Below are positions 1,068 through 13,527 of a stretch of 64,000 nucleotides of DNA, one piece after another. The position numbers and the translations under genes are program-made. Numbering within the stretch: the stretch's first letter is position 1; each line of letters begins with the position of its first letter. The notes beneath the pieces were generated by a model. It was not told the origin of the DNA. It did not search any database and worked only from the letters and a program-made list of their open reading frames with translations. Source of the stretch: Vulcanimicrobiota bacterium (GTDB lineage: Bacteria; Vulcanimicrobiota; Vulcanimicrobiia; Vulcanimicrobiales; Vulcanimicrobiaceae); NCBI GenBank assembly GCA_963795855.1, contig CAWCIZ010000001.1, positions 320,001 through 384,000 of the forward strand, written 5' to 3'.

Positions 1068-2449
1068 ATCGTCGTAAAGGTTTTCAGCGTGGCTTGCGAA
1101 CTTACTGCTTGCCCGAGCGCGCGTTGTGAAAGCGCCAAGCCGTAGAGCGCGCGCGGATCGTTCGGGTAGCGCGTCAGCGCAGCTTCGAACGCAGTTTGCG
1201 CTTGGTCGTAGCGCTTTTGCCGGTAGTAGAACGCGCCCAGCGCCTCTGCCGCGGGAAATACCGGCAACTGTTCGGCGCCGTCTTCGCGCTGCTGATAGGC
1301 GATCGCGCGCGTAAGCGCGTCAACGGCGGCATCGGTTCGCCCATCGTGCTCGTCGATCGCCGCTGCGAGCAGCCACCGGTAATCGCCATCGATGTTTCCG
1401 TATAGCGCCAGCATTTTGCGAGCATCGTCCATCACGCCGAAATGCACGTCGGTCAATCCTCGCGCGAGCGGAGCGTAGAACTCATTCGTCGCGCCCGACG
1501 AAGCGATGCGCTGCCACTGTCCAAAGCGCGCCCAGGTTGCCCACAGATCGCTGCCTTCGTATTCATGACCGACGCGCGCGGCCCACGCTTCCGCAACGTG
1601 CAGATCTCCGAGCATCAGCGCGTTCGTCCATCCGGTGTACGCGTCGTGCGCGCCGTAATGCAGTTTGAACGGCCGATCGGTTTGCGCGTTCCATTGCTCG
1701 CGCAGGCGCCAGGCGGTCTCGCTTACCGCCAGGGCCTTCGCGTACTCGCCGACTTCCGTATACGTGTGCGCGGGCATATGCGCGAGGTGCTCTTCGGCGG
1801 GATCGAGCGTCCATGTTGCCACGCGATCTGCGCACACAAGTGCGGGACCGCGGTCTGCCGCGTAATCGTACGCGTGCATGCACAAGTGATTGGCGAATAC
1901 GTGGTTTGGATCGCGAGCCAGGACACGTGTGATAATTGCGACCGCATCGGCATCGGGATGTTCGACACCGCTGTGCTCGAGCAGCGCCTCGGCATCCAAC
2001 ATGGCCGCATCGTCGTCTTGCGGATAGGCCGACACCAGCGCCGCCATCGCCGCGCGGTATTGCGCTTCGGCGCCGTCGTGCTGTTCGTAGATGCCGCCGT
2101 AGCGTTTCGCAGCCGCATCGATGTACGCGCGTTCCTCCGGCGAGGCATAGCGTTGGAGCGAGAGTGCGTGAAGTGCGGCTGCGTGTGCGCGCGCGAAGCG
2201 GGCCGGATCGAGCGGCGTGTTGAGATCGGTACCGTTGGCGAGCGCTTCGCCCCAAGCCGCGATCGCGAGGTGCGGGTCATGGCGCAGCGCCGCCTGAAAC
2301 GCGAGGTTCGCCGCATCGCCGTCGTAGGTGTACAGCAGCGTAAGGCCGCGATCGAACGCCGCTTGCGCTTGCGCATCGCGCGTCGTTACCGGATGATGAG
2401 CGCTCGGGGTGAAAGCGAGCGCGGCTGCCAGGGCGAGGGCGGCTATCAC
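1028..2449 (-). CDS. secreted TPR-repeat protein
   Basis: GTG 2449 overlaps the TopIB stop; signal peptide; AQAAFDRGL, HLAHMPAHTY and C-terminal TPR-like repeats. Confidence 0.8.
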   Translation of the reverse strand: MIAALALAAALAFTPSAHHPVTTRDAQAQAAFDRGLTLLYTYDGDAANLAFQAALRHDPHLAIAAWGEALANGTDLNTPLDPARFARAHAAALHALSLQRYASPEERAYIDAAAKRYGGIYEQHDGAEAQYRAAMAALVSAYPQDDDAAMLDAEALLEHSGVEHPDADAVAIITRVLARDPNHVFANHLCMHAYDYAADRGPALVCADRVATWTLDPAEEHLAHMPAHTYTEVGEYAKALAVSETAWRLREQWNAQTDRPFKLHYGAHDAYTGWTNALMLGDLHVAEAWAARVGHEYEGSDLWATWARFGQWQRIASSGATNEFYAPLARGLTDVHFGVMDDARKMLALYGNIDGDYRWLLAAAIDEHDGRTDAAVDALTRAIAYQQREDGAEQLPVFPAAEALGAFYYRQKRYDQAQTAFEAALTRYPNDPRALYGLALSQRALGQAVSSQATLKTFTTIWTQPTPPDLGNL

Positions 2450-3558
2450 GCCGCTTTCTTCTTGCGTCCCTTCAACGATTGCTTCAATTGGCGAACGGTT
2501 CGTGAACTGTCGGTTTCCTTCGCTCGCTCGCGCAGCAGGGCAAGAACGAATACCTCGTCCGGAAGCAGTCCGTCGGTGTGGCGCATCGCTGCCGGTGCAG
2601 AGATGGCGCCGTGTTCGAGATATGCGTCCACAACCTCGGGGTGCACGTAGCATTTGCGGCACACCGCGGGTGTGTTGCCGAGGCGTTGCGCGACGTCTTT
2701 GATGACGTCCGTCAACCGCTGCTTGCGCTCGGTTTGCGTCTCCGCTGCTTCCAGCTGCGCGAGCAGCGATGCGCAGGTTACGGTACCCAACCACGTGCGA
2801 AAATCTTTCGCGGAAAATTCTTCGTCCGAAATCGCCCGAATGTAGTCGTTGACGTCCGACGAGTCGATCGCGCGCGTCGCGCCATCGTCGTCGACGTACT
2901 CGAAGAGTTGTTGTCCCGGCAAATCTTGGCATTTGCGAATGATGCGCGCGAGGCGGTTGTCGCGCAAATCGATCGCGTGACGCACGCCGCTCTTTCCGCG
3001 AAACGAGAAGCGTACAGTCGAGCCTTGCACTTTCGCGTGCTTGTTTTGCAGCGTGGTCAGTCCGAAGGAGCCGTTGTCTTTGGCGTATTCGTCGTTGCCG
3101 ACACGAATCGCCGTGCTTTCCAGCAATTGCACCACGGTGGCCAGGACTTTTTCGCGCGGCAGTCCCGCAAGCGCCAAATCCGCTTCGACGCGTTTGCGGA
3201 TCGCCGGAAGCGCTTGCGCGAACGCGATCATGCGCCCGTATTTCGTTTCATCGCGGATTTCACGCCAGCGTTTATGGTAGCGATACTGCTTACGCCCGCG
3301 GGCGTCGCGCCCGGTGGCCTGCAGATGACCGTTCTCAAGCGGACAGATCCACACGTCCGCATAAGCGGGCGGGACCGCCAGCGATTTGATGCGTGCCAGA
3401 TCTTTTTCATCGGTAATTTCTTTGCCGTCCGGGGCAACGTACGCGAAATGCTTTCCGCGCGCGATGCGTTTGATGCCGGGCATCGCATCGCTCACGTAGC
3501 GAAGCCCGGCGGCTTTCGCCGCGGCGACCGGATCCGCGAGCGTTTCAGGAGCGGTCAT
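2446..3558 (-). CDS. DNA topoisomerase IB
   Basis: GRKQYRY, IRVGNDEYAK, FRGKSG, SAKDFRTW and LGNTPAVCRKCY (catalytic Tyr) motifs; ATG 3558. Confidence 0.93.
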   Translation of the reverse strand: MTAPETLADPVAAAKAAGLRYVSDAMPGIKRIARGKHFAYVAPDGKEITDEKDLARIKSLAVPPAYADVWICPLENGHLQATGRDARGRKQYRYHKRWREIRDETKYGRMIAFAQALPAIRKRVEADLALAGLPREKVLATVVQLLESTAIRVGNDEYAKDNGSFGLTTLQNKHAKVQGSTVRFSFRGKSGVRHAIDLRDNRLARIIRKCQDLPGQQLFEYVDDDGATRAIDSSDVNDYIRAISDEEFSAKDFRTWLGTVTCASLLAQLEAAETQTERKQRLTDVIKDVAQRLGNTPAVCRKCYVHPEVVDAYLEHGAISAPAAMRHTDGLLPDEVFVLALLRERAKETDSSRTVRQLKQSLKGRKKKAA

Positions 3559-4082
3559 GCGGCCTGACCATCGTAGCGCAGTGTGCCGCCGGCGCGGCGA
3601 ACGCCTTGCGTCAACGCGTGCGGCTGCAGCCGGCCGTTCGCCATGAGGTGCCGCACGTCGATGCCGTGCAGCAGTACGGCAGCGTCGGAAATGAGCCGGC
3701 GGTGGCACCGCCACCACAACGTTTCCGAGCACATGATTGCCGTTTTGCGATGCGACAACGAGTCGACCAGCGAATTCAGGGCGCTCAAAAACCGTTCCGT
3801 TTCCATGTAATCGGCGTATCCGCGAAATGACGGATTGCGCAGCGCCGTATGATGTGAACTCGGTTGCGGGGTGCGGAATCCGCCGAGATCGCGCTCCCAA
3901 ACGTACTCCGCTCCCGCTTCCGCGGGAACCCAGATCGCCATCTTGTCGCCCCACACCCATGGGTGGACGCGACTTTTCGGAACCGTGCGGACATCCACCA
4001 CGCGAGCGATGCCGGCCGCCTGTATCAGGCTTGCGAGTTCGTCCTGCGTAAGTGTGCCGTGCCCGAACGTCAGAAGTTCCAC
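3555..4082 (-). CDS. DUF488 family protein
   Basis: TFGHG, VDVRTVPKSR, LGGFR, IMCSETLWWRCHRRLISD motifs. Confidence 0.88.
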   Translation of the reverse strand: MELLTFGHGTLTQDELASLIQAAGIARVVDVRTVPKSRVHPWVWGDKMAIWVPAEAGAEYVWERDLGGFRTPQPSSHHTALRNPSFRGYADYMETERFLSALNSLVDSLSHRKTAIMCSETLWWRCHRRLISDAAVLLHGIDVRHLMANGRLQPHALTQGVRRAGGTLRYDGQAA

Positions 4083-4246: not shown

Positions 4247-4321
4247 GGGCGCGTAGCTCAGTGGGAGAGCATCCGCTTCACACGCGGGGGGTCGTTGGTT
4301 CAATCCCAACCGTGCCCACCA
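4247..4321 (+). tRNA. tRNA-Val(CAC)
   Basis: cloverleaf GGGCGCG...CGTGCCC-ACCA, anticodon loop TTCACAC, GGTTCAA T-loop. Confidence 0.95.
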
Positions 4322-4392
4322 TTTTGTCGCAGACACGCTTAGAGGTCCGAGTCCGGCGGAGTGCCAATAGTGCTCGCCGGTCTCATGGCGAT

Positions 4393-4469
4393 GGCGCTGT
4401 AGCTCAGTTGGTTAGAGCGCCGCCCTGTCACGGCGGAGGTCGAGGGTTCGAGCCCCTTCAGCGTCGCCA
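4393..4469 (+). tRNA. tRNA-Asp(GTC)
   Basis: cloverleaf GGCGCTG...CAGCGTC-GCCA, anticodon loop CTGTCAC. Confidence 0.96.
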
Positions 4470-4500
4470 TTTTTTCGGACCTCCAACAAGGTTCCGCAAA

Positions 4501-4532
4501 CGAAGAAGCCCCGTAAACACGAGGCTTTTTCG
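4501..4532 (+). terminator. terminator-like hairpin after tRNA-Asp
   Basis: CGAAGAAGCCCCG...CGAGGCTTTTTCG imperfect inverted repeat. Confidence 0.55.
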
Positions 4533-4618
4533 TCTTTTACGGGGCCACGCGCTAAGGCCCGCGAGATGGGAGTATGCCTTTTTGCTGACTACAAAGAACG
4601 ACATAGAATCGCCGGCGC

Positions 4619-4855
4619 TCACGAGTGAAATGCAACAATCAACAGCACCACTACGGCAGCGAGGACTACCGCGCCGCCGATTACCGTAGACAGCACGACC
4701 ATGCCACCGCCGATAAAGCGTATCGCCGGCACACTCGGGTAAAAACGGGACGACTTCAGCCAACCCTCGGCATGGCGTCCAAGCAGAACGATGAACAAAC
4801 CGACGAGCACCCAAAAGCCGCAAATGAAAACTGCGAGCAGCATCATCGGATTCAT
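4619..4855 (-). CDS. small two-TM membrane protein
   Basis: 78 aa with two long hydrophobic segments. Confidence 0.55.
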   Translation of the reverse strand: MNPMMLLAVFICGFWVLVGLFIVLLGRHAEGWLKSSRFYPSVPAIRFIGGGMVVLSTVIGGAVVLAAVVVLLIVAFHS

Positions 4856-5128
4856 TAGGCTTGCGCGTCATCTTGAGGCGCAGGTAGTAATTCCGATAAC
4901 TTTTCGGCTTCTATGCTGGCCCTCTCGATCGCCTTCGGATCTCAGCTATTACTTTCGCGTACTGACTAATCTCCTCGTCCTCGATGCTCTCAGCGGCACC
5001 GCTCGCCTACACGTCAAAGGAGTAGCCTTTGCGAATGCGGTTTCAAAATCTCCTAAGCGATACGTGAAGTCTGTTTCGGAGAGCGTTACATTCTTTAGTG
5101 GTTGCGTCACCAAGTTGCCTTCTTGTGT

Positions 5129-5603
5129 TTATTGACGGTGTGTGAAGGCTTCCGTAGGCGAAACATCGAGCCCGCGTGAGTTCACCCAGTGAACAACGTC
5201 GGCGCCGTCTTGCAAATTGTAGGCCGTGCACTCTGAAATACAATGGAACGAGTGGACGCGCCGCGCCGGTAAGTAGACATAATCACCGGCGTGCAAAGTG
5301 ACGGGTGCTTCTCCTTTGAATTGATGCGACCCGTATCCGCTTATGAGGATTAGCTGCGTATTTGCGGCGTGCCAGTGTGGTGGAATCATGCATCCCGATG
5401 CTATTTTGGCAATCTCCACGGAAGCGCCTCGGCGCGGATCCCCTTCCACCATGGCGACGCGCACGCACGGCGGCAAGAACGGCACTTTAACGAAGCGGGC
5501 GCTTTGGAGTGAAGAGACGTGGGCTGCGGGAGGCTTCTGCGGCCGCCACTCCCGACACCGCAATGATGCCGAGGAGGAGAAACACATATATGGTCGGTCT
5601 CAT
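5129..5603 (-). pseudogene. secreted cupin-domain protein, frameshifted
   Basis: AGGAGG then ATG 5603 gives signal peptide MRPTIYVFLLLGIIAVSGVAAAEA; frameshift near 5535 into the cupin frame (IPPHWH, LHAGDYVYLPARRVHSFHC). Confidence 0.7.
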
Positions 5604-5642
5604 GACGAACCTCCTAATCGTGTGTTCCGGCTAGGGTTCCGT

Positions 5643-5694
5643 CGCCCTGTCACGGCGGAGGTCGAGGGTTCGAGCCCCTTCAGCGTCGCCATTT
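5643..5694 (+). repeat. direct repeat of tRNA-Asp 3' half (att-like), copy 2
   Basis: identical to 4421-4472 (anticodon arm through CCA plus TTT). Confidence 0.95.
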
Positions 5695-5696
5695 AA

Positions 5697-5732
5697 AAAG
5701 AAGCCTCGGTGCATATGCGCTGGGGCTTCTTT
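5697..5732. terminator. bidirectional terminator-like hairpin
   Basis: AAAGAAGCCTCGGTGCAT/ATGCGCTGGGGCTTCTTT inverted repeat. Confidence 0.65.
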
Positions 5733-5734
5733 GT

Positions 5735-6249
5735 TATTTCGCAGCGGCCGGATCGCTGAGCAATTTGCCCGCTCCAACAGCTGCCGAAAGAACGTTTCGA
5801 ACTCCGGATCCAATGCTTGCGCTCGACCGCATTTTCAAAGATTGCTTGTGCGATCGGCATGCGCGCAACCGGCGCGAACGCCGATACCCAAGTGCGCCAG
5901 CGGTGATCGTCCACTGAGCGACCGTTTGCGTAAGAAATAGATGTCCTGCAAGCCGTCAATCCCATTGCGAACGAACATCATTGATTGCAGGTACTCGGGG
6001 TCGTGGTAAGCGCAACTCGCCGATTGTGGGATCGCCGGAGAGATATTCCTTCAACGCTATCGGGCGATCAGTGAGTTGAGCCCGTATATCGTAGATGCGC
6101 TGCACCATGGCGTTTTGAATCTCCATAGTGGCCGCCCTATGCGCCGCATCCGCCTGACGCTTCACTTGAAGTGCTTGCGTGCGAGTATAAACCAACGAAA
6201 TGATGCCGACGCCTATGCCGGACAACCCGAAGACAATGCCCAGGTCCAT
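5735..6249 (-). pseudogene. N-terminal TM hypothetical protein broken by several frameshifts
   Basis: MDLGIVFGLSGIGVGIISLVY... appears to continue in other frames (GLQDIYFLRK; DDHRWRTWVSAFAPVARMP; DPEFETFFRQLLE); end approximate. Confidence 0.55.
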
Positions 6250-6281
6250 TTGATCGGCCCGCTTTCAACGCGTTAGCGGCG

Positions 6282-6335
6282 CGCCCTGTCACGGCGGAGG
6301 TCGAGGGTTCGAGCCCCTTCAGCATCGCCATTTTT
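6282..6335 (+). repeat. direct repeat of tRNA-Asp 3' half (att-like), copy 3
   Basis: matches 4421-4474 with one G>A change at 6324. Confidence 0.95.
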
Positions 6336-6367
6336 CCCCTAGAGTTCTGACCTCCGGGGGGCATAGA

Positions 6368-6395
6368 GAAAAGCCCTGATTTGTCGGGGCTTTTC
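6368..6395. terminator. terminator-like hairpin
   Basis: GAAAAGCCCTGA...TCGGGGCTTTTC inverted repeat. Confidence 0.6.
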
Positions 6396-6920
6396 GCGTC
6401 CTCTGGATACGGCTACAAGGCTGCACGTATGTGGTTCGCATGGACGCCTGACGAGGCACAGCGCTTGCCGATTACGCCGCGCACCTGATGTCGACGGGGA
6501 GAGGCTGCTTCTTGCCGATTAGCATGTCGGTGAACACGATTGATCAGCGGTGCTTGCTCTCTGAGTTCTGATCGCGTTTCCCTCGATGGAATACGAGCGA
6601 TTGCGTATGAGCAAGGCATTGTGCGCCGTGTTGGCACAATGCCAAGGTGGGATGAAGCGCCTTTCTGGTATTGATGCCCGCCTGGAAAAGCGAAGGGCGG
6701 GGATGCGGACATTCGCTGGACTAGGGTGAATTAACCACCGCTGCGAGGCATTGGCGCGCGGCAGATAGCGTACGCGGTGTCGCGACCGCAATAACATGAA
6801 CTCTAACAACGACGTCTTTGAATCGTTCCAGCGGCGGCGCATAGCATTTATGCGTGACTGGCGATGCGGAAGTGACGAGAAGCCGCGCAGCCCTACGATA
6901 TATGTTATAGTGAGCCGCGC

Positions 6921-7472
6921 TTGGACGTGTGCCCCTGTTGCGCATATCCGACTCTGCTCACGTCTCGCCAGTCAACGCACGCGTGTGAGCTGCGACGGCT
7001 GGTGCGATGATGGACAGGACGATCCTCGCTATCGAATAAGACCCGATTACTATGGCGCAGACGAGACAGCCGGGGTTCCCGACTGCGGTCCCAACTACAA
7101 TTACTCGCTGACGGAAGCGCGCCTGAACTTTTCGCGTTATCAGCAGAAGTACCGTCGCAACGACGATCATTTTGATCGCTACTAGCTGATGAAAGAGTGA
7201 GGACGGCACTGATCGCCGCATTCGATTCCCGACCGCCATCGGTCGAACCACAACGCTACATTTCGGCGTTGCCGAAGATCAATGCGATCTTTGGCAGCGC
7301 TCTACGAAGCGCCTCGGGGAAAGCCGTATCTGGGCGGCCAGAAGACGAAGGAATGATACGAGGCGCACAGAAGGCCAGAGCCGCGCGAGACGGGCTCTTC
7401 TGGCGCAGGCTGTACGAGAAGGCGGGCATCGACCCAAGCAGCGGGGCGATTAAGAAGCAGGTCAGCCGTTAG
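6921..7472 (+). pseudogene. CPCC-family cysteine-rich protein, fragmented
   Basis: LDVCPCCAYPTL in one frame, then WCDDGQDD...GPNYNYSLTEARLNF in another; stop at 7185 and a further fragment beyond. Confidence 0.65.
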
Positions 7473-8192
7473 TTATTCTCGTCACCCCGTCCGGTTCTGT
7501 TCTTTTCGGGCTGGATTCGCCCCCCCCAGATAGTAGGCCGCACACGAAATGCAGCGTGATGCGAATGTCAGCGCCGTCCACAGCGAGCGCATCAAACGGT
7601 CATCCTCGACTGCGTCGATCGACGATGCGCCCTCAAAAAACAAATAGGGACGTCGTAATTCTACGAGTCGAGAAATTGAGCGATTCTGCTGGAACCTCTT
7701 CGATAGAACGCTCTCTCAGTGCATAGCGCTCGATACGATCCGCTTTGCGCCACAGACCGCGGTCTTGTTCTGTCAAACCGCGGTAATCCACATGTGGAAC
7801 AGAGGCTGTTTCTTCATCGCGTGGGTATGCGCGAACGAAATGACTCAGCCTGTCAGGGGTGGCTATCAGGGGAGCGACGGCGTATGTTAAGTCCAGCGTT
7901 GTAGCCACTACGGCGTAGGCGCTTTCTGCGTTCCATGAGCCAGCGGTTCGCAGACATCGTTTCGCCGCGACGGAATATCCCAGAGCGGCATAGCGTCTAT
8001 GTGAAAGCCTGTGCTAGAGTCGCACTGCGAAGCCAAGAGCGACGATGGCACCTAGTCGATAGAAAAGCGTATTTCACTTTCGGTCACGGACTTTCTGCCC
8101 AAAGCCAGGAGTCTTCAAAGTGTGCTTTATGCCAACGCGGGCAATGAATCGGCATTTAAAACAAGTCGATGTTCTGCGCCGTGGTTTCTTCC

Positions 8193-8512
8193 TCACTCCT
8201 TGGGGACGAACGTCTGGAAATCTATGCCGCCGATTTTACCACTTGGATCGAAGGCAATGTGCTCGATAACCCTGCCGTTTCGGAACGTTATGGCAAATAC
8301 GTAACCGGTCGCGTCAGTTCCGCGCTTGTCACCGCGTCGAGTTGCGAGCGATCGACGTTTCCGGTTTGAAAGCGGTAGAACCACTCTTTGGCGAGCGCGA
8401 TGATGAACGGCTGAACCGGCCCCGTCGTGGCAGCCGGCGCGCTATCTTGAGCAAAGGCTGGAACGGTGCAAGCCGCAACGGCAATCAAGACCGCGTAGCA
8501 TAACTTAAGCAT
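8193..8512 (-). pseudogene. secreted hypothetical protein with internal frameshift or deletion
   Basis: signal peptide MLKLCYAVLIAVAACTVPAFA; AKEWFYRFQTGNVDRSQL then frame change to YVFAITFRNG...FDPSGKIGGIDF. Confidence 0.55.
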
Positions 8513-8577
8513 GAAATTAAGTACTAAACGGGTTGCGAGCGGCCTGAGATTTTGCGGCTGCATCTGCCTGAACCCGC

Positions 8578-9285
8578 CTAGTGCGCGAACCACGCGAAGT
8601 ACGGGTCACCTAAGAGTATAGCCGAGCTCGGCCGGATTTGCTTTGGTTTGTTTGGTGGTGCGAACGTCACGATGCGCGGGCCGGTTGGAAGAGCGTTTGT
8701 TACAACGTCAAGGATCCAGCTCGCAGCATCGGATCCACCCTCGCCGGCCGGGACCGATATGCGATCGATCGAGGCCGCGCGAACTTCAGATGTCGGGTGC
8801 GGCACGCTCGACCATAGCGCGTAATACCGAGCTCCGAGATACGCGTAGCGACCGCCGGTGCGCACCGGGACGAAGACGATCGGAACCGCCATACATCCCT
8901 TTTCAGCAAGCACGACGAACGCAACGACGTAAGGCAGGCGCGATCCGGCCTTCGGTACGATTGTAAGGTTTGTGGCGGCGCCGCATCCGTCGCCGGGACC
9001 ATCGACCGGCGCGTACGCGTGACCGGCGGCTAAAAACGGCGTAAGCGAAAGCACCTGCGGCGTCATGCCAGGCGCGGACACGCGCACGTATGCCGGCCCG
9101 AGCGCCGTGGCTTTGTATCGTTGGCCCGTCTCGTCGGGATGCTGCCAGCGCAGTTCGGCGGTCCAGTGCAGCGTCGCCCGCACGTCGTCGTACGTCTTGG
9201 TGGTAACGTGATGCGACGTCGAGATCAACGGTCCCAGCGTGAGCGAACAAGCCAAGAGCAGCGTCGACGAAATCGCCTGCGCCAT
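8578..9285 (-). CDS. secreted hypothetical protein
   Basis: 235-aa ORF, hydrophobic N-terminus, TAAGAT 6 nt upstream of ATG. Confidence 0.6.
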   Translation of the reverse strand: MAQAISSTLLLACSLTLGPLISTSHHVTTKTYDDVRATLHWTAELRWQHPDETGQRYKATALGPAYVRVSAPGMTPQVLSLTPFLAAGHAYAPVDGPGDGCGAATNLTIVPKAGSRLPYVVAFVVLAEKGCMAVPIVFVPVRTGGRYAYLGARYYALWSSVPHPTSEVRAASIDRISVPAGEGGSDAASWILDVVTNALPTGPRIVTFAPPNKPKQIRPSSAILLGDPYFAWFAH

Positions 9286-9313
9286 GCGCCTATCTTACCA
9301 TGCCGCTGATGCG

Positions 9314-10077
9314 TCAGGCGACGTCGGTCGTGCCGAGCTGCCGGATTCTTTTCAGCGTTTGGGCGGTTAGAGCGATGCTGTTTGCGATCTCTTCCGCTTG
9401 CGAGAGTTCTGCCAGCGCCGCTTCGTGCGCTTCACGGCATTTCGCGACGTGTATCTGCGCGTCGCGAGTCAAGACGCCCGCCAAGGCGGCGCGCTTTACG
9501 GCCTCCGTTGCGCGCGATTCAGTTTCAAGCAGTTTCGCCTTCGAGAGAGCCACGACGTCCTGCGCTTGGGCTAACCGCGCTTGCAGTTCTTTGACGGAGG
9601 CCTCCGCCGCGGTGAGTTCCTGTCGGACCGAAGCGACCTCGCCTTCCACCTTCGTTTGATAGGCTGCCGCTTTTTCGCTATTTCGAGCGTAGGCCGAAGC
9701 TTCGGCAGTCGCGGTTCGCTCGGCTTCGGCGGCTTGGGCCGCTGCTGCGCGTTTCTCGTCGAGCTTCAGGTTCTCACTCAACGAGCGTGCCTGTGCAGCC
9801 TCCTTCGCGAGCATTTCCTCGATGTGGCGCGCGTTTGCCAGCAGCTGTTCCAGCCTCTTGCGGTGTGCCTCCAGCTCTCCGCGCGCTGCGCCGGTAACGG
9901 GCGGTTCGGCGGAAATCGGCGCTGCCCCGGCGGTTTCGGCAAAATGAATCTGCTCGATCTCGCAAGGCTGATCGTTTTCCCGCTCGCTGATGTGAACTCC
10001 GTGAGCACCTCGTCGAGGTCCGGAGCCGAATCGTTTCCTAGACGTGACGAGCGGGAGCCGAACGCGCGGCTCACCAT
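9314..10077 (-). CDS. Ala/Glu-rich coiled-coil protein, probable frameshift in 5' part
   Basis: 9314-9814 frame is heptad-like and stays open upstream without a start; plausible ATG 10077 is in another frame. Confidence 0.55.
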
Positions 10078-10282
10078 GCCCCGTAAGGAGGTATCTTCAA
10101 TATTTCGCTTAGGGTGCAAGGCCGTAATTGCACCTCCGTTGCCGTGGTTCGAAAGACTCCCCCTCCAAGGATAATCGGCAGAACCGGCGGCCATTGTAGG
10201 CACAGGCCTCTTCCCACGGCCGAGCCCGTGACTTTCCCCACGCAGCGCCGCAGAAGCGCCTTGCCGCGGGGCCTAAAGGCCG

Positions 10283-10663
10283 CTATGAGGTGCTATAGGT
10301 GACGCCGCTGGCATGAATATGTACGTTGACGGCAGCGCAGATCGGGATCTTTCCGCCGCTGATCACGGCACCGTTCGAGAACACCGCTTTTACATCGTAC
10401 AGTTTGTAATCACGCGTATCGCTCGACATGTCGACGACCGTATTTTCGCCCGAGTACAGAACATGGTCGCCGAGGACGTCGTCTTCCCAGCTCCCGGCTG
10501 CGGTGGGCGCAACGTACAACTGTTCGATAGCGGTATCGGTGTCGTTAAAGACCCGGAACGATTTCGTGCATGCGCCGGCCGGTGCGACTGACACCGCGAT
10601 AGCGGTCCCGAGAAATGCTAAAGCCAGCATGAACGCGGCAATACGCCGCAATAGAAAAGCCAT
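10283..10663 (-). CDS. small secreted beta-rich protein
   Basis: AAAGGA RBS, signal peptide, NDTDTAIEQLYVAP...WEDDVLG...YDVKAVF. Confidence 0.75.
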   Translation of the reverse strand: MAFLLRRIAAFMLALAFLGTAIAVSVAPAGACTKSFRVFNDTDTAIEQLYVAPTAAGSWEDDVLGDHVLYSGENTVVDMSSDTRDYKLYDVKAVFSNGAVISGGKIPICAAVNVHIHASGVTYSTS

Positions 10664-11196
10664 GATAACACGGTCCTTTCGAATGATTGCCTGCCCGCCG
10701 CATCACTATAGCCGGATGTCTGCTGAATTACCATAGGGCGGAAAGCCCACGGAGTAGTAAGCACGCCAGGATGCGCCGCAACACCGAGGCCCTACGGCCG
10801 AACGGCATCCTAAGGTAAACCGAAAGCGTCGCTCCTATATCACCTTTCGGCGGGCCATCGCGTTGCGTATGCAGCGCACCGGCAAATGCCCGCTGCCTTT
10901 TTGTGCAGGAACGCCGACTGAAATTCGCTCTTGCAAATGGCGCGCAAGGATTCGGCGCCGGCGACGCTTGGTGCGCGTGCGACTTCACCGCCGCAAAGCA
11001 CGCCACGGGCCGTTCGTTACAGGTCGCGGAGGCGAAGCATGGCCAGTTCGGATACGGCTGGCTATACGTTTTCGGCCTCGCCGTAGCAGTCGCGGTTACC
11101 AGCGCTAGCAGATGCAGCATTCAACACCTCCCGGCCATGCAGTGCTCGAAACAAGAATAGGGTACGCAAGGCGTTCGTGACAAATGACGCCGGTCG

Positions 11197-11586
11197 TCAC
11201 GTTCGATTATGCCGGCGCAGGAAGTCGCCGAGGCGCGTCCGTTCGCCCGGCGGATACGTCAGCTGGAGTCCGCAGATCAAGCCGTCGTCGGAAAGCTTCA
11301 CCGACATGGTATGGTCCAGCACGAATTCTTCACCGTCGAGTTGCAGAACGTCGATGAAGCGAATGTCCAGCGGCGCGTTCGGGTCGATTTCGTGGCGAAA
11401 CTCGACTGAGTCGAAAACGTTGCGTCCCTTCTCCGATGCGGCGCGAAACGATTCGACGATTTGGTCCGAGCCGATGATGATTTTCTCGCTTGTGTCGTAC
11501 TGCGCACGCTCCGCTAGGCACGCCGCGGCCGCGACGTAGTCGTCGTCGTCGAGCGCTTGGGCGAAGCGGTGCACGATGCGGCACAT
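11197..11586 (-). CDS. SnoaL/NTF2-like protein
   Basis: IVHRFAQALDDDDYVAAAACLA...GSDQIVESF pattern. Confidence 0.65.
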   Translation of the reverse strand: MCRIVHRFAQALDDDDYVAAAACLAERAQYDTSEKIIIGSDQIVESFRAASEKGRNVFDSVEFRHEIDPNAPLDIRFIDVLQLDGEEFVLDHTMSVKLSDDGLICGLQLTYPPGERTRLGDFLRRHNRT

Positions 11587-11703
11587 ACCATGGCTTGGTC
11601 GCCCGCTTGCTTGCCGAATCCTTGTGGGATTCGCCCTGATAAGCGCTATAATAGTAACCTAAGTTACTATTTACTGCGCATATCGCACGCAGGGAGGTTT
11701 TCC

Positions 11704-12075
11704 ATGCAGAGCCTTGATCAACGCGCTCAACACCTCAGTTTCGCCACACCCGAAGAAGTACGCGAGTTTCCGAACGGAAAGGCGGAGATCATCATCATCG
11801 GCGGTTCGGAAATCGGCCGATATACGTTTCGCCCGGGCTGGCGCTGGTCGGTCGACGTAAAGCCAATCGCCAAAACCGACAGTTGCCAAGTCCCGCACAT
11901 GCAATACCATCTGGCCGGACGGGTTGCGATTCAAATGGACGACGGTACGCAGTTCGTCGCAAACCCCGGCGACGTGACGTCACTCCCGAGCGGACACGAC
12001 GCGTGGGTCATCGGTGACGAGCCGGCCGTGACTATCGACTGGTTCGGCGCCAGCACGTACGCAAAAAAGCAGTAG
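11704..12075 (+). CDS. cupin-domain protein
   Basis: GGAGG RBS; FRPGWRWSVDVKP, SCQVPH, PSGHDAWVIGDEP. Confidence 0.85.
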   Translation: MQSLDQRAQHLSFATPEEVREFPNGKAEIIIIGGSEIGRYTFRPGWRWSVDVKPIAKTDSCQVPHMQYHLAGRVAIQMDDGTQFVANPGDVTSLPSGHDAWVIGDEPAVTIDWFGASTYAKKQ

Positions 12076-12087
12076 GGTAACGCGAAC

Positions 12088-12729
12088 GTGAAACCTCGCA
12101 TCTTCGGCACGGCGTTGCCGGTGCTGTTGCTTATCAGCGCTCCGGCCGCCGCGCAAGTCGCCTCGCCCAACGCGTTCGTCTACAACATGAAGTTGAGTTC
12201 GGGACAACGCGGCATGGACATTTCGCTGGCCTTTACGGTTACTGCGACGGATAGCGACGGCAACCGAAAGGCCGTCGCCGTCGTGAGAGCGCCGAAAATG
12301 GTGCCGCTGGACGGCAAGAAATTCGATGTGACCGTCGATCGCGCAGGCGTCATTACCGTCGGAAGTACGGGAACATTCACGACCGGCGGTGCGGCCGAAG
12401 CGAAGGCGAACAGCGCCGCCGCGATCGGGCCGCTGCTGCAAATGATGATTAATCCGCTCAACGTGTTCGCCGCGGGCTGTGCCGCGGCGCCGTCGCAAAA
12501 AGTCGGCACGACGTGGCATGCGTATTCGAGCGCAGTGATGACGGACGTCGTGTTCACGATCACGGGGCGCGAACAGCAAGGCGGTCACAACACGATCGCC
12601 GTCACAATGTCGTCGCCGGGATCCGGGGCAAGTGTGACGGGGAAAGGTAATTACGACCCGGCCGCGCGTGTCGTCGTGAACGTACATTCGGAAGTGCGCC
12701 AAGCCGCAGGCGCGCGCGAACTGAAGTGA
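12088..12729 (+). CDS. secreted hypothetical protein
   Basis: 213 aa, Sec signal peptide ending APAAA. Confidence 0.7.
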   Translation: MKPRIFGTALPVLLLISAPAAAQVASPNAFVYNMKLSSGQRGMDISLAFTVTATDSDGNRKAVAVVRAPKMVPLDGKKFDVTVDRAGVITVGSTGTFTTGGAAEAKANSAAAIGPLLQMMINPLNVFAAGCAAAPSQKVGTTWHAYSSAVMTDVVFTITGREQQGGHNTIAVTMSSPGSGASVTGKGNYDPAARVVVNVHSEVRQAAGARELK

Positions 12730-12793
12730 TGGACGCCGCACTCGCAAGTCCGTAACGCCGTCACGATCGGAGTTGCTGCGCTGTTATTCGCAT

Positions 12794-13048
12794 ATGAACG
12801 CAGCATCGAACGGTCGTGTTCTTCGCATCGCGTTTGCCGCTTCACTCGCGGTGCATTTGATCGTCGCGGCGGTGTTGTATTCGCGCCCGGTTACGGCGGC
12901 TCCCGAACAAATTCCGGAGCACATGCACGTGTACAAGTTGCAACTTCCGCCGCCGACGCCTACTCCGCCGCCGCCGAAGCCCGCGCTGCCGCATCCACAG
13001 CGCAAGAGCACCGCCGTGCTGCCGGCGATACATCGCGTGCGATTGTCA
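12794..13048 (+). pseudogene. truncated TonB-like protein (N-terminal half)
   Basis: SLAVH TM anchor and PPPTPTPPPPKP linker; runs into the convergent csaA with no TonB C-terminal domain. Confidence 0.55.
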
Positions 13049-13387
13049 GTACAGGCGCGCGCCGTTCGTGACGTTTTGATCCGGGCGAACGAGAACGACG
13101 GCGCCGTTCGCATCGGGAACGCCCAACACGAGGACGTCGCTGGAAAAGCCCGCAATTCTGCGCGGCGGAAAGTTGACGATCGCCAGCACTTGCTTGTCCA
13201 CTAAATCCGCGAGCGCATAGTGCGCCGTAATTTGCGCGCTCGACCGTTTCACGCCGATCTCGCTTCCGAAGTCGATCGTCAGTTTGTATGCGGGTTTGCG
13301 CGCTTGCGGAAATGGCTCCGCTGCAACGATAGTGCCGGTGCGCACGTCGAGGGCGGCGAAGGCGTCCAAAGACGAGATTTGACTCAC
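13046..13387 (-). CDS. csaA: tRNA-binding protein CsaA
   Basis: LDVRTGTI, ARKPAYKLTIDFG, SSAQIT, VNFPPRRIAGF; GTG 13387. Confidence 0.9.
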   Translation of the reverse strand: MSQISSLDAFAALDVRTGTIVAAEPFPQARKPAYKLTIDFGSEIGVKRSSAQITAHYALADLVDKQVLAIVNFPPRRIAGFSSDVLVLGVPDANGAVVLVRPDQNVTNGARLY

Positions 13388-13451
13388 GATGCCGCCTGTT
13401 GGCGCGGCAAGGGGACGACGCCTGCGCAGAGAATCCAAGGCGGTCGCCCGT

Positions 13452-13527
13452 GCCAAGGTAGACCAGTTGGTAGAGCACGTGACTGAAAATTACGGTGTCG
13501 CCGGTTCGATTCCGGCCCTTGGCACCA
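13452..13527 (+). tRNA. tRNA-Phe(GAA) with mismatched D-stem
   Basis: acceptor GCCAAGG/CCTTGGC-ACCA, anticodon loop CTGAAAA, GGTTCGA T-loop; D-stem GACC/GAGC. Confidence 0.8.

Follow-up and report, generated by a model that had tools for sequence, protein, structure and literature searches.

A tRNA-Asp locus with stacked small units in a Vulcanimicrobiota genome: probable tandem accretion with decay

Stacks of integrase-free units bounded by attachment (att) sites are known from streptococci, where CIMEs (cis-mobilizable elements) and tandem accretion were defined; the units lie at the 3' end of a target gene, tRNA genes included, near integrase-bearing relatives (PMC5704250, PMC7563491). CIMEs measure 1.2-13 kb and microCIMEs 130-220 bp (PMC7563491). 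The present work concerns a locus of similar build in a 64,000-nt stretch of DNA from a Vulcanimicrobiota bacterium, hereafter the window. Behind a tRNA-Asp(GTC) gene it carries two tandem units of 1222 nt (unit 1) and 639 nt (unit 2), bounded by direct repeats of the 3' end of that gene. We conclude that the locus was probably formed by tandem accretion with decay, which left CIME-like islets. Comparison with other genomes of the class shows repeated insertion at this one tRNA site, integrase-bearing relatives and a graded loss of integrases and arm repeats.

The size range of CIMEs agrees with that of units across the class, which span 0.6-8 kb with cargo and measure 222 and 263 bp where they are gene-less. 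CIMEs differ in deriving from integrative and conjugative or integrative and mobilizable elements (PMC7563491, PMC5704250); the parents seen here look instead like small integrase elements, and the open reading frames (ORFs) scanned gave no relaxase match. Compared with known CIME-like stacks, the window units are unusually small and arm-less; because they are as small as CIMEs get or smaller and show no detectable arm sites, their mobility in cis is doubtful. In Dehalococcoides, several tandem islands bounded by target 3'-end copies occupy ssrA, and 15 islands lacking an integration module were interpreted as possible CIMEs; there the target is tmRNA, the module encodes a serine recombinase, the repeat is 20 bp and the cargo is larger (PMC3146451), whereas here tyrosine integrases of several arm families use a tRNA anticodon-loop site with a longer repeat. 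Prochlorococcus tycheposons, like the elements found here, are small tyrosine-integrase elements at tRNA genes, with successive insertions separated by partial tRNAs, and with broken integrases and tRNA pieces strewn over the islands (bioRxiv 10.1101/2020.12.28.424599); the likeness extends to an AAA_25 ORF in a 4.1-kb element of one relative. Tycheposons usually retain an integrase (same source), whereas units 1 and 2 have neither a site-specific integrase of their own nor a replication or packaging module. In the literature on islands of the phylum and on one-gene tRNA cassettes within reach of our search, which left most subscription journals outside, no account of the locus or of arm-less one-gene units was found.

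Repeated insertion at one tRNA gene

An earlier, sequence-only reading of the window had placed 49-nt copies of the 3' part of tRNA-Asp at 4421, 5643 (identical) and 6282 (one mismatch), an AAGCC...GGCTT hairpin behind each, and units of about 1.2 and 0.6 kb with minus-strand cargo and gene starts 33-40 nt from the next repeat. These features were reproduced throughout: coordinates and mismatch count agree, the hairpins lie at 4506-4527, 5701-5728 and 6371-6392, the unit sizes are those given above, ATG 5603 and ATG 6249 stand 40 and 33 nt from the following repeat, and every cargo gene in the window is on the minus strand. Searched against the whole genome, the two repeats match tRNA-Asp with BLAST E values of about 1e-19 (copy 2) and 1e-17 (copy 3). 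The GC content is 55% in the units and 62% in the DNA upstream, and no promoter was predicted for either leading gene (the cupin gene of unit 1 and the sole gene of unit 2).

The accreted zone is wider than the two units and reaches about 9 kb to tRNA-Phe. We designate as G000 the genome holding the window (86% complete), by other G numbers the compared genomes and by L numbers fetched loci or contigs. The interval between tRNA-Asp and tRNA-Phe is 8982 nt in the window, 571-12016 nt in 12 other loci showing both genes, and 25, 40 and 51 nt in G236, G013 and G149. Because these empty-site relatives have only 25-51 nt, the whole 9 kb must have been acquired. No further eroded tRNA-Asp repeats were found within 6331-13450. 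The 3'-half pattern was matched in 327 of 385 genomes and more than once in 27, five of which have extra whole tRNA genes. tRNA-Asp is an integration hot spot throughout the class, and the hairpins most likely arrived with the elements.

The site is used in relatives by integrase-bearing elements (G105, G078, G301, G044, G045 and L101). Among 41 catalogued repeat-to-repeat units, integrase sequence occurs in seven, nearly full-length in three (3.4, 3.9 and 4.1 kb) and as fragments in four, and genome-wide PF00589 scans of 33 genomes concur; G049, with four units, has a single tyrosine recombinase, distant from the array. No relaxase Pfam match was obtained among 154 unit ORFs scanned, the G078 element having been read in part. 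Arm-type tandem repeats or a family motif, falling into about nine families, accompany 27 of the 41 units, and arm repeats adjoin every tRNA-Asp integrase that has both ends in view. In G044 unit 1 and G049 unit 2 the arms on the two sides belong to different families, which indicates deletions across a boundary. Repeats are 45-52 nt long and start mostly at tRNA positions 26-35. In most of them the T-stem variant is that of the resident tRNA (exceptions: G068, G058, G301, G049 and G018), a pattern compatible with local circulation and with gene conversion alike.

The catalogue, compiled from fetched loci, spans units of 222 bp to 17 kb and draws on 18 genomes and 3 metagenome contigs. It includes three degenerate boundaries that were entered manually, and no unit truncated by the end of a contig. 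Integrase sequence was sought with seven integrase queries. Arms were scored where repeats in tandem with a period of 10-14 bp, or else a family motif, lay no more than 200 bases from a boundary; 18 of 300 random segments of the window also triggered this detector, whose motif list was drawn from the same data. Among unpublished genomes, G048 entered the cupin tally and its context check, G059 supplied a single arm motif from beyond the 41 units, and the remainder entered tallies only; none of the conclusions rests on these genomes.

Several arrangements were noted beside the catalogue. Family f3 (G044, G049, G045, G064, G068, G069; L010, L011, L012, L030-L034, L037) forms longer arrays, with up to five boundaries per contig and 10 in G064. 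Its units have in common a right arm of 130-150 nt (70-88% identity) and carry unrelated cargo and almost no integrase; as non-autonomous mobile elements they are more plausible than the window units. In G001 (L024 2767-3000) tRNA-Asp and its leader are duplicated in tandem, 108 nt past the first copy and cut by the contig end. In G301 (L129 5357-7568) a related integrase is followed by two 3'-part copies of another tRNA, 884 bp apart, with arm repeats, a build like that of the tRNA-Asp units at a different tRNA. Finally, L043 and L045, from two families (G058 and G114), are identical in repeat and flanks, one of them on a 2.8-kb contig, reflecting either recent transfer or misbinning.

Graded loss of integrases and arms

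The stages of element loss can be followed into the window. G105 holds an intact 4.1-kb unit with matched arms, a 426-aa integrase and the AAA_25 ORF, and the unit of G078, directly behind tRNA-Asp, is 72% identical to it. G002, a member of the window's genus, retains 390 bases of a G105-type left end at 83% identity, through the last codons of the integrase, and then breaks off. In the window itself, 64 bases after the third repeat (6331-6395) match the G105 left end (55 of 62 aligned bases identical), and neither arm repeats nor an integrase was found there. Unit 1 of G017 retains about 20 terminal codons of another integrase type together with an arm, an integrase fragment lies in an 817-bp unit of G069, and a second hairpin is present in G002, G003 and G004 (same genus), preceded in two of them merely by a GCCA stub. 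"Remnants of tandem islands", one of two explanations offered by the sequence-only reading, is thus directly supported by integrase elements, integrase stumps and arm-only mini-units in relatives and by a truncated element end behind the third repeat. That reading had named large integrase-bearing islands in relatives, of which the units would be deletion relics, as evidence that would speak against its own view, and such evidence was obtained by half. Integrase-bearing islands are indeed present, but the parents are small (3.4-7.5 kb, with one of 17 kb) and units 1 and 2 could be traced to none of them.

G105-type ends (L054 47-110, L110, window 6331-6365) have an extra first hairpin before the terminator, which occurs also at tRNA-Val(GAC). 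The loop of this hairpin presumably resembles half of the operator known as CIRCE (controlling inverted repeat of chaperone expression).

We propose that the anticodon loop of tRNA-Asp, the site to which the repeat boundaries point, is where several families of small elements recombine by means of arm-binding tyrosine integrases. Each element would carry in a terminator and a 3' half that replaces the resident one; with every insertion, one more 3'-half copy would be added and older material shifted outward. Outward stacking by successive insertions is established for tRNA islands, and the corresponding structure is present at this locus; the concept of integration sublocations within tRNA genes reportedly goes back to Williams in 2002. 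Later deletions would strip integrase and arms while the hairpin and some cargo remain, as is seen in relatives and in the DNA after the third repeat and as we suppose for units 1 and 2; the hairpin may double as terminator of the convergent cargo gene. Units 1 and 2 would then be end-stage CIME-like islets of relic origin, probably immobile alone. Their repeats may still act as landing sites or, given a matching integrase, permit exit or composite movement.

A number of observations weigh against accretion with decay. Units 1 and 2 retain core and identity block, but past the hairpin their ends match no integrase-bearing unit, and no parent element was found; they show no tandem arm repeat and no exact known arm motif, within the reach of a detector that sees only tandem repeats and motifs of the dataset. 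Eight of the 13 units shorter than 1.5 kb, the window's two included, lack detected arms on either side, and random deletion would need to have halted repeatedly within some 40-60 nt of the core. The near identity of the repeats to the tRNA (98-100%) suggests recent arrival and little time for erosion; fresh repeats adjoin old cargo, a combination that decay explains poorly. The distance from the cupin ATG to CTGTCAC is 43 nt both in G000 and in G098, a genome of another genus. Five integrase-free units (1.6-6.7 kb) bear matched arms at either end and have the appearance of intact non-autonomous elements, not of debris.

The arm-less right ends and their recurrent spacing could alternatively stem from an integrase-made deletion, in which a cryptic core-like site just upstream of a cargo gene recombines with the right att site and removes both integrase and arm at once, so that the gene comes to lie against the repeat. 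A single event of this kind would account for gene starts 33-62 nt from the repeat, and in L101 and in the 17-kb unit of G301 the integrase does lie at the right end, with cargo straight after the terminator. The flanks left of the core in G000 are loosely tRNA-like by shuffling (p 0.002 for repeat 2, whose 47 preceding bases resemble the tRNA-Asp leader and 5' half; p 0.095 for repeat 3). The former value is the best of 56 tests, was noticed post hoc and becomes about 0.11 after correction; the corresponding flanks of G098 and G207 show no such likeness (p 0.87 and 0.99), and neither a released integrase circle nor an intermediate was observed. We consider this route improbable. That the repeats are decayed duplicates of the full tRNA was rejected, as only 1 of 56 flanks is notable.

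Table 1. Features of the tRNA-Asp locus in the window
Feature	Position	Strand	Remarks
tRNA-Val(CAC)	4247..4321	+	starts Val-Asp-Phe tRNA cluster; order kept in relatives
tRNA-Asp(GTC), target gene	4393..4469	+	called by ARAGORN; identity block 4421-4469
Putative crossover zone, anticodon loop CTGTCAC	4425-4431	+	from repeat boundaries in relatives
Terminator-like hairpin, left end of unit 1	4506..4527
78-codon hydrophobic ORF, unit 1	4619..4855	-	no Pfam match
Small gene, probably broken, middle of unit 1	4860..5113	-	pieces in three frames; weak call, translation only
Secreted cupin gene, unit 1	5129..5603	-	one frameshift past signal peptide
tRNA-Asp 3' part, copy 2	5643..5691	+	no mismatch; right boundary of unit 1
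Terminator-like hairpin, left end of unit 2	5697..5732		A-run before, T-run after
Sole gene of unit 2, family of ~169 aa	5734..6249	-	no Pfam match; frameshifted as assembled
tRNA-Asp 3' part, copy 3	6282..6330	+	one mismatch, at 6324; right boundary of unit 2
Truncated left end of G105-type integrase element	6331..6395	+	double hairpin; by alignment to G105
Older accreted zone	6396..12750		no more repeats detected; contains 8578-9285 gene; little common to same-genus genomes
Gene for 235-aa secreted protein	8578..9285	-	no repeat adjoining; 73% nucleotide identity to G207 unit gene
tRNA-Phe(GAA), far boundary	13452..13527	+

Cargo genes and the question of independent mobility

The cargo bears on an alternative in which arm-less one-gene cassettes of 0.6-1.2 kb (core, 3' half, terminator and gene) are themselves mobile and have long circulated between genera. 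They would excise as circles and re-enter tRNA-Asp, by a core-only integrase acting in trans or, once DNA has been taken up, by homologous recombination through a single crossover within the 49-nt block, in an integron-like form of gene capture. Arm-less one-gene units do occur in three genera, represented by unit 2 of G000 (639 bp), G098 (624 bp) and G207 (933 bp), with the gene stop near the hairpin (2 nt from it in unit 2) and the start near the repeat. The G098 unit consists of the hairpin, one intact cupin gene and the repeat; its product is 69% identical to the G000 cupin over 121 aa, and the genes are 68% identical in nucleotides. The G207 unit carries the relative of the window gene at 8578-9285, which was found in 3 of 331 genomes and lies behind tRNA-Asp in both G000 and G207. 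Two rare genes thus recur at tRNA-Asp in different genera, and neither leading gene of the window was detected in any of seven same-genus genomes. The freshness of the repeats beside old cargo also agrees with mobile cassettes, as does the presence of a ComEC-family gene in G000. Tyrosine recombinases comprise arm-binding and "simple" types, the latter being arm-less (PMC8138268).

Other findings speak against such cassettes. The shared cargo (68-73% identity) is as diverged as core DNA between the same genera (67-76%), so that no recent transfer is demonstrated, and no unit is present in two genomes at high identity. The 43-nt spacers of G000 and G098 are not significantly alike (p 0.31). The cupin gene was found in 8 of 385 genomes, next to repeats in G000 and G098 only; the six other copies lie away from tRNA-Asp repeats, as do all 19 inspected among 25 homologues of the unit 2 gene. 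The tRNA-Asp integrases with both ends in view all have adjoining arm repeats, and no candidate helper integrase was found in G000; apart from the housekeeping Xer gene, no recombinase is common to G000, G098, G207 and G273, as compared by position, not by alignment. We therefore regard independent movement of the arm-less units as doubtful.

The state of the genes themselves is ambiguous. The frame that opens at ATG 5603 runs for 39 codons and encodes a signal peptide, but the cupin body lies in another frame. The unit 2 gene, which starts at ATG 6249, is spread over three frames by three shifts. These four frameshifts in about 1 kb of cargo compare with 0.61 per kb in conserved genes of the G000 assembly, of which 13 of 37 are frameshifted (Poisson p 0.003, with errors that cluster and a rate drawn from 37 genes). 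Because the assembly is indel-prone, the cargo frameshifts may reflect either decay or sequencing error. No family match was obtained for the 78-codon ORF, the broken small gene or the unit 2 gene.

Upstream of the 8578-9285 gene (window 9285-9300) and of its G207 homologue (L050), an extended -10-like motif was seen by eye about 7 nt before the ATG, which suggests leaderless transcription from a self-contained promoter. A 10-base block at 5595-5604, containing the cupin start codon (minus strand), equals the tRNA-Asp leader at 4378-4387, and its spacing to the repeat is similar. As a promoter, GTGACA on the antisense strand of the anticodon loop was discarded, no -10 being seen by eye at the right spacing. 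Likewise, a supposed cassette relic at a secondary site in G054, with CTGTCAC 39 nt before a cupin ATG and a CAGCGTCGCC stub after it, was rejected: 24% of background windows match the 3'-half alignment equally, and the heptamer contains the stop codon of the upstream gene.

Recombinases, other islets and implications

The absence of a recognisable integrase from the window, as first read from the letters, was confirmed: all nine PF00589 tyrosine recombinase matches of G000 lie elsewhere. Units 1 and 2 hold no transfer gene either. No serine recombinase was found in this 86% complete genome, and the best TIGR02249 score for the integron integrase IntI was 70.5 bits against a cut-off of 265. 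The G105-type integrase family occurs in 16 of 385 genomes, distant matches at other tRNAs included, and G000 is not among them. A phage helper found no support: neither the G105 integrase nor the cupin had a relative in viral contigs, and the search made in this connection returned none of the 8578-9285 gene either. The sole viral match to the repeat pattern was a whole tRNA gene and was discarded, as were tRNA-Pro-like matches in L077, which are repeats within protein-coding sequence.

Integrons and CALINs (clusters of attC sites lacking integron-integrases) have compact one-gene units, start codons near the recombination site and a recombinase outside the unit, features that the window units share. 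Here, too, the window genes are single, promoter-poor and in one orientation. Unlike in integrons, the boundary is a tRNA half with a terminator and shows no attC-like palindrome or fold, as judged by eye against the known features of attC sites; terminators between units would stop read-through from a single promoter. In relatives the cargo lies on both strands (61 plus-strand and 47 minus-strand ORFs of at least 100 aa in 38 units, by heuristic calls). The other explanation of the sequence-only reading, an integron-like stack mobilised in trans, finds no support in this mixture, in the lack of IntI above cut-off or in the failure of any unit to recur at high identity, although it keeps a minor probability for the arm-less one-gene units. 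An assembly artefact might be suspected from the indel-prone sequence, but the three repeat copies differ in their flanks and the build recurs in 17 other genomes. Both a true integron-type array and an artefact are already largely refuted, and we give them very little credence.

Two further integrase-free tRNA-bounded islets in G000 point to integrase loss as general in this genome. One, of 3.5 kb (C3:652653-656246; GC 54%), is bounded by tRNA-Glu(TTC) and a second copy of that gene's 3' end and has no match to a tyrosine or serine recombinase. In the other (C3:686290-690257), the 5' 50 nt of tRNA-Val(TAC), not its 3' part, are duplicated 3.9 kb upstream at 90% identity, and no integrase match was found.

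Elsewhere in G000, a frameshifted tyrosine integrase lies directly beside tRNA-SeC (C3:112472-113941) and another near tRNA-Ala(CGC) (C5:12307-14374), in an island with relaxase-like ORF pieces seen by eye. A tRNA-like sequence inside a tRNA cluster (C1:486380-486448) was not called by ARAGORN. Upstream of tRNA-Val-Asp the window holds genes for a type IB topoisomerase and a DUF488 protein (2446-4082), as do many genomes of the family. The fold of type IB topoisomerases resembles that of tyrosine recombinases; as a candidate recombinase the gene (2446-3558) was rejected, being in no fetched flank (about 2 kb) of multi-repeat f3 arrays while lying beside many single-copy loci.

Read as accretion with decay, the locus is a stepwise record of how a little-studied phylum gains single accessory genes, through tRNA-Asp elements that erode to a terminator and a gene. 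It also yields att sequences and at least two types of tRNA-Asp-associated tyrosine integrase with their arm motifs. The reading is useful but conventional: it follows a known route for the pile-up of bacterial genes, here with pieces cut down to roughly a single gene each. Should the arm-less one-gene units move, however, about 0.6 kb of DNA, with no protein of its own, would suffice as the smallest mobile unit of a tRNA island, and island finders based on integrases would overlook such gene flow.

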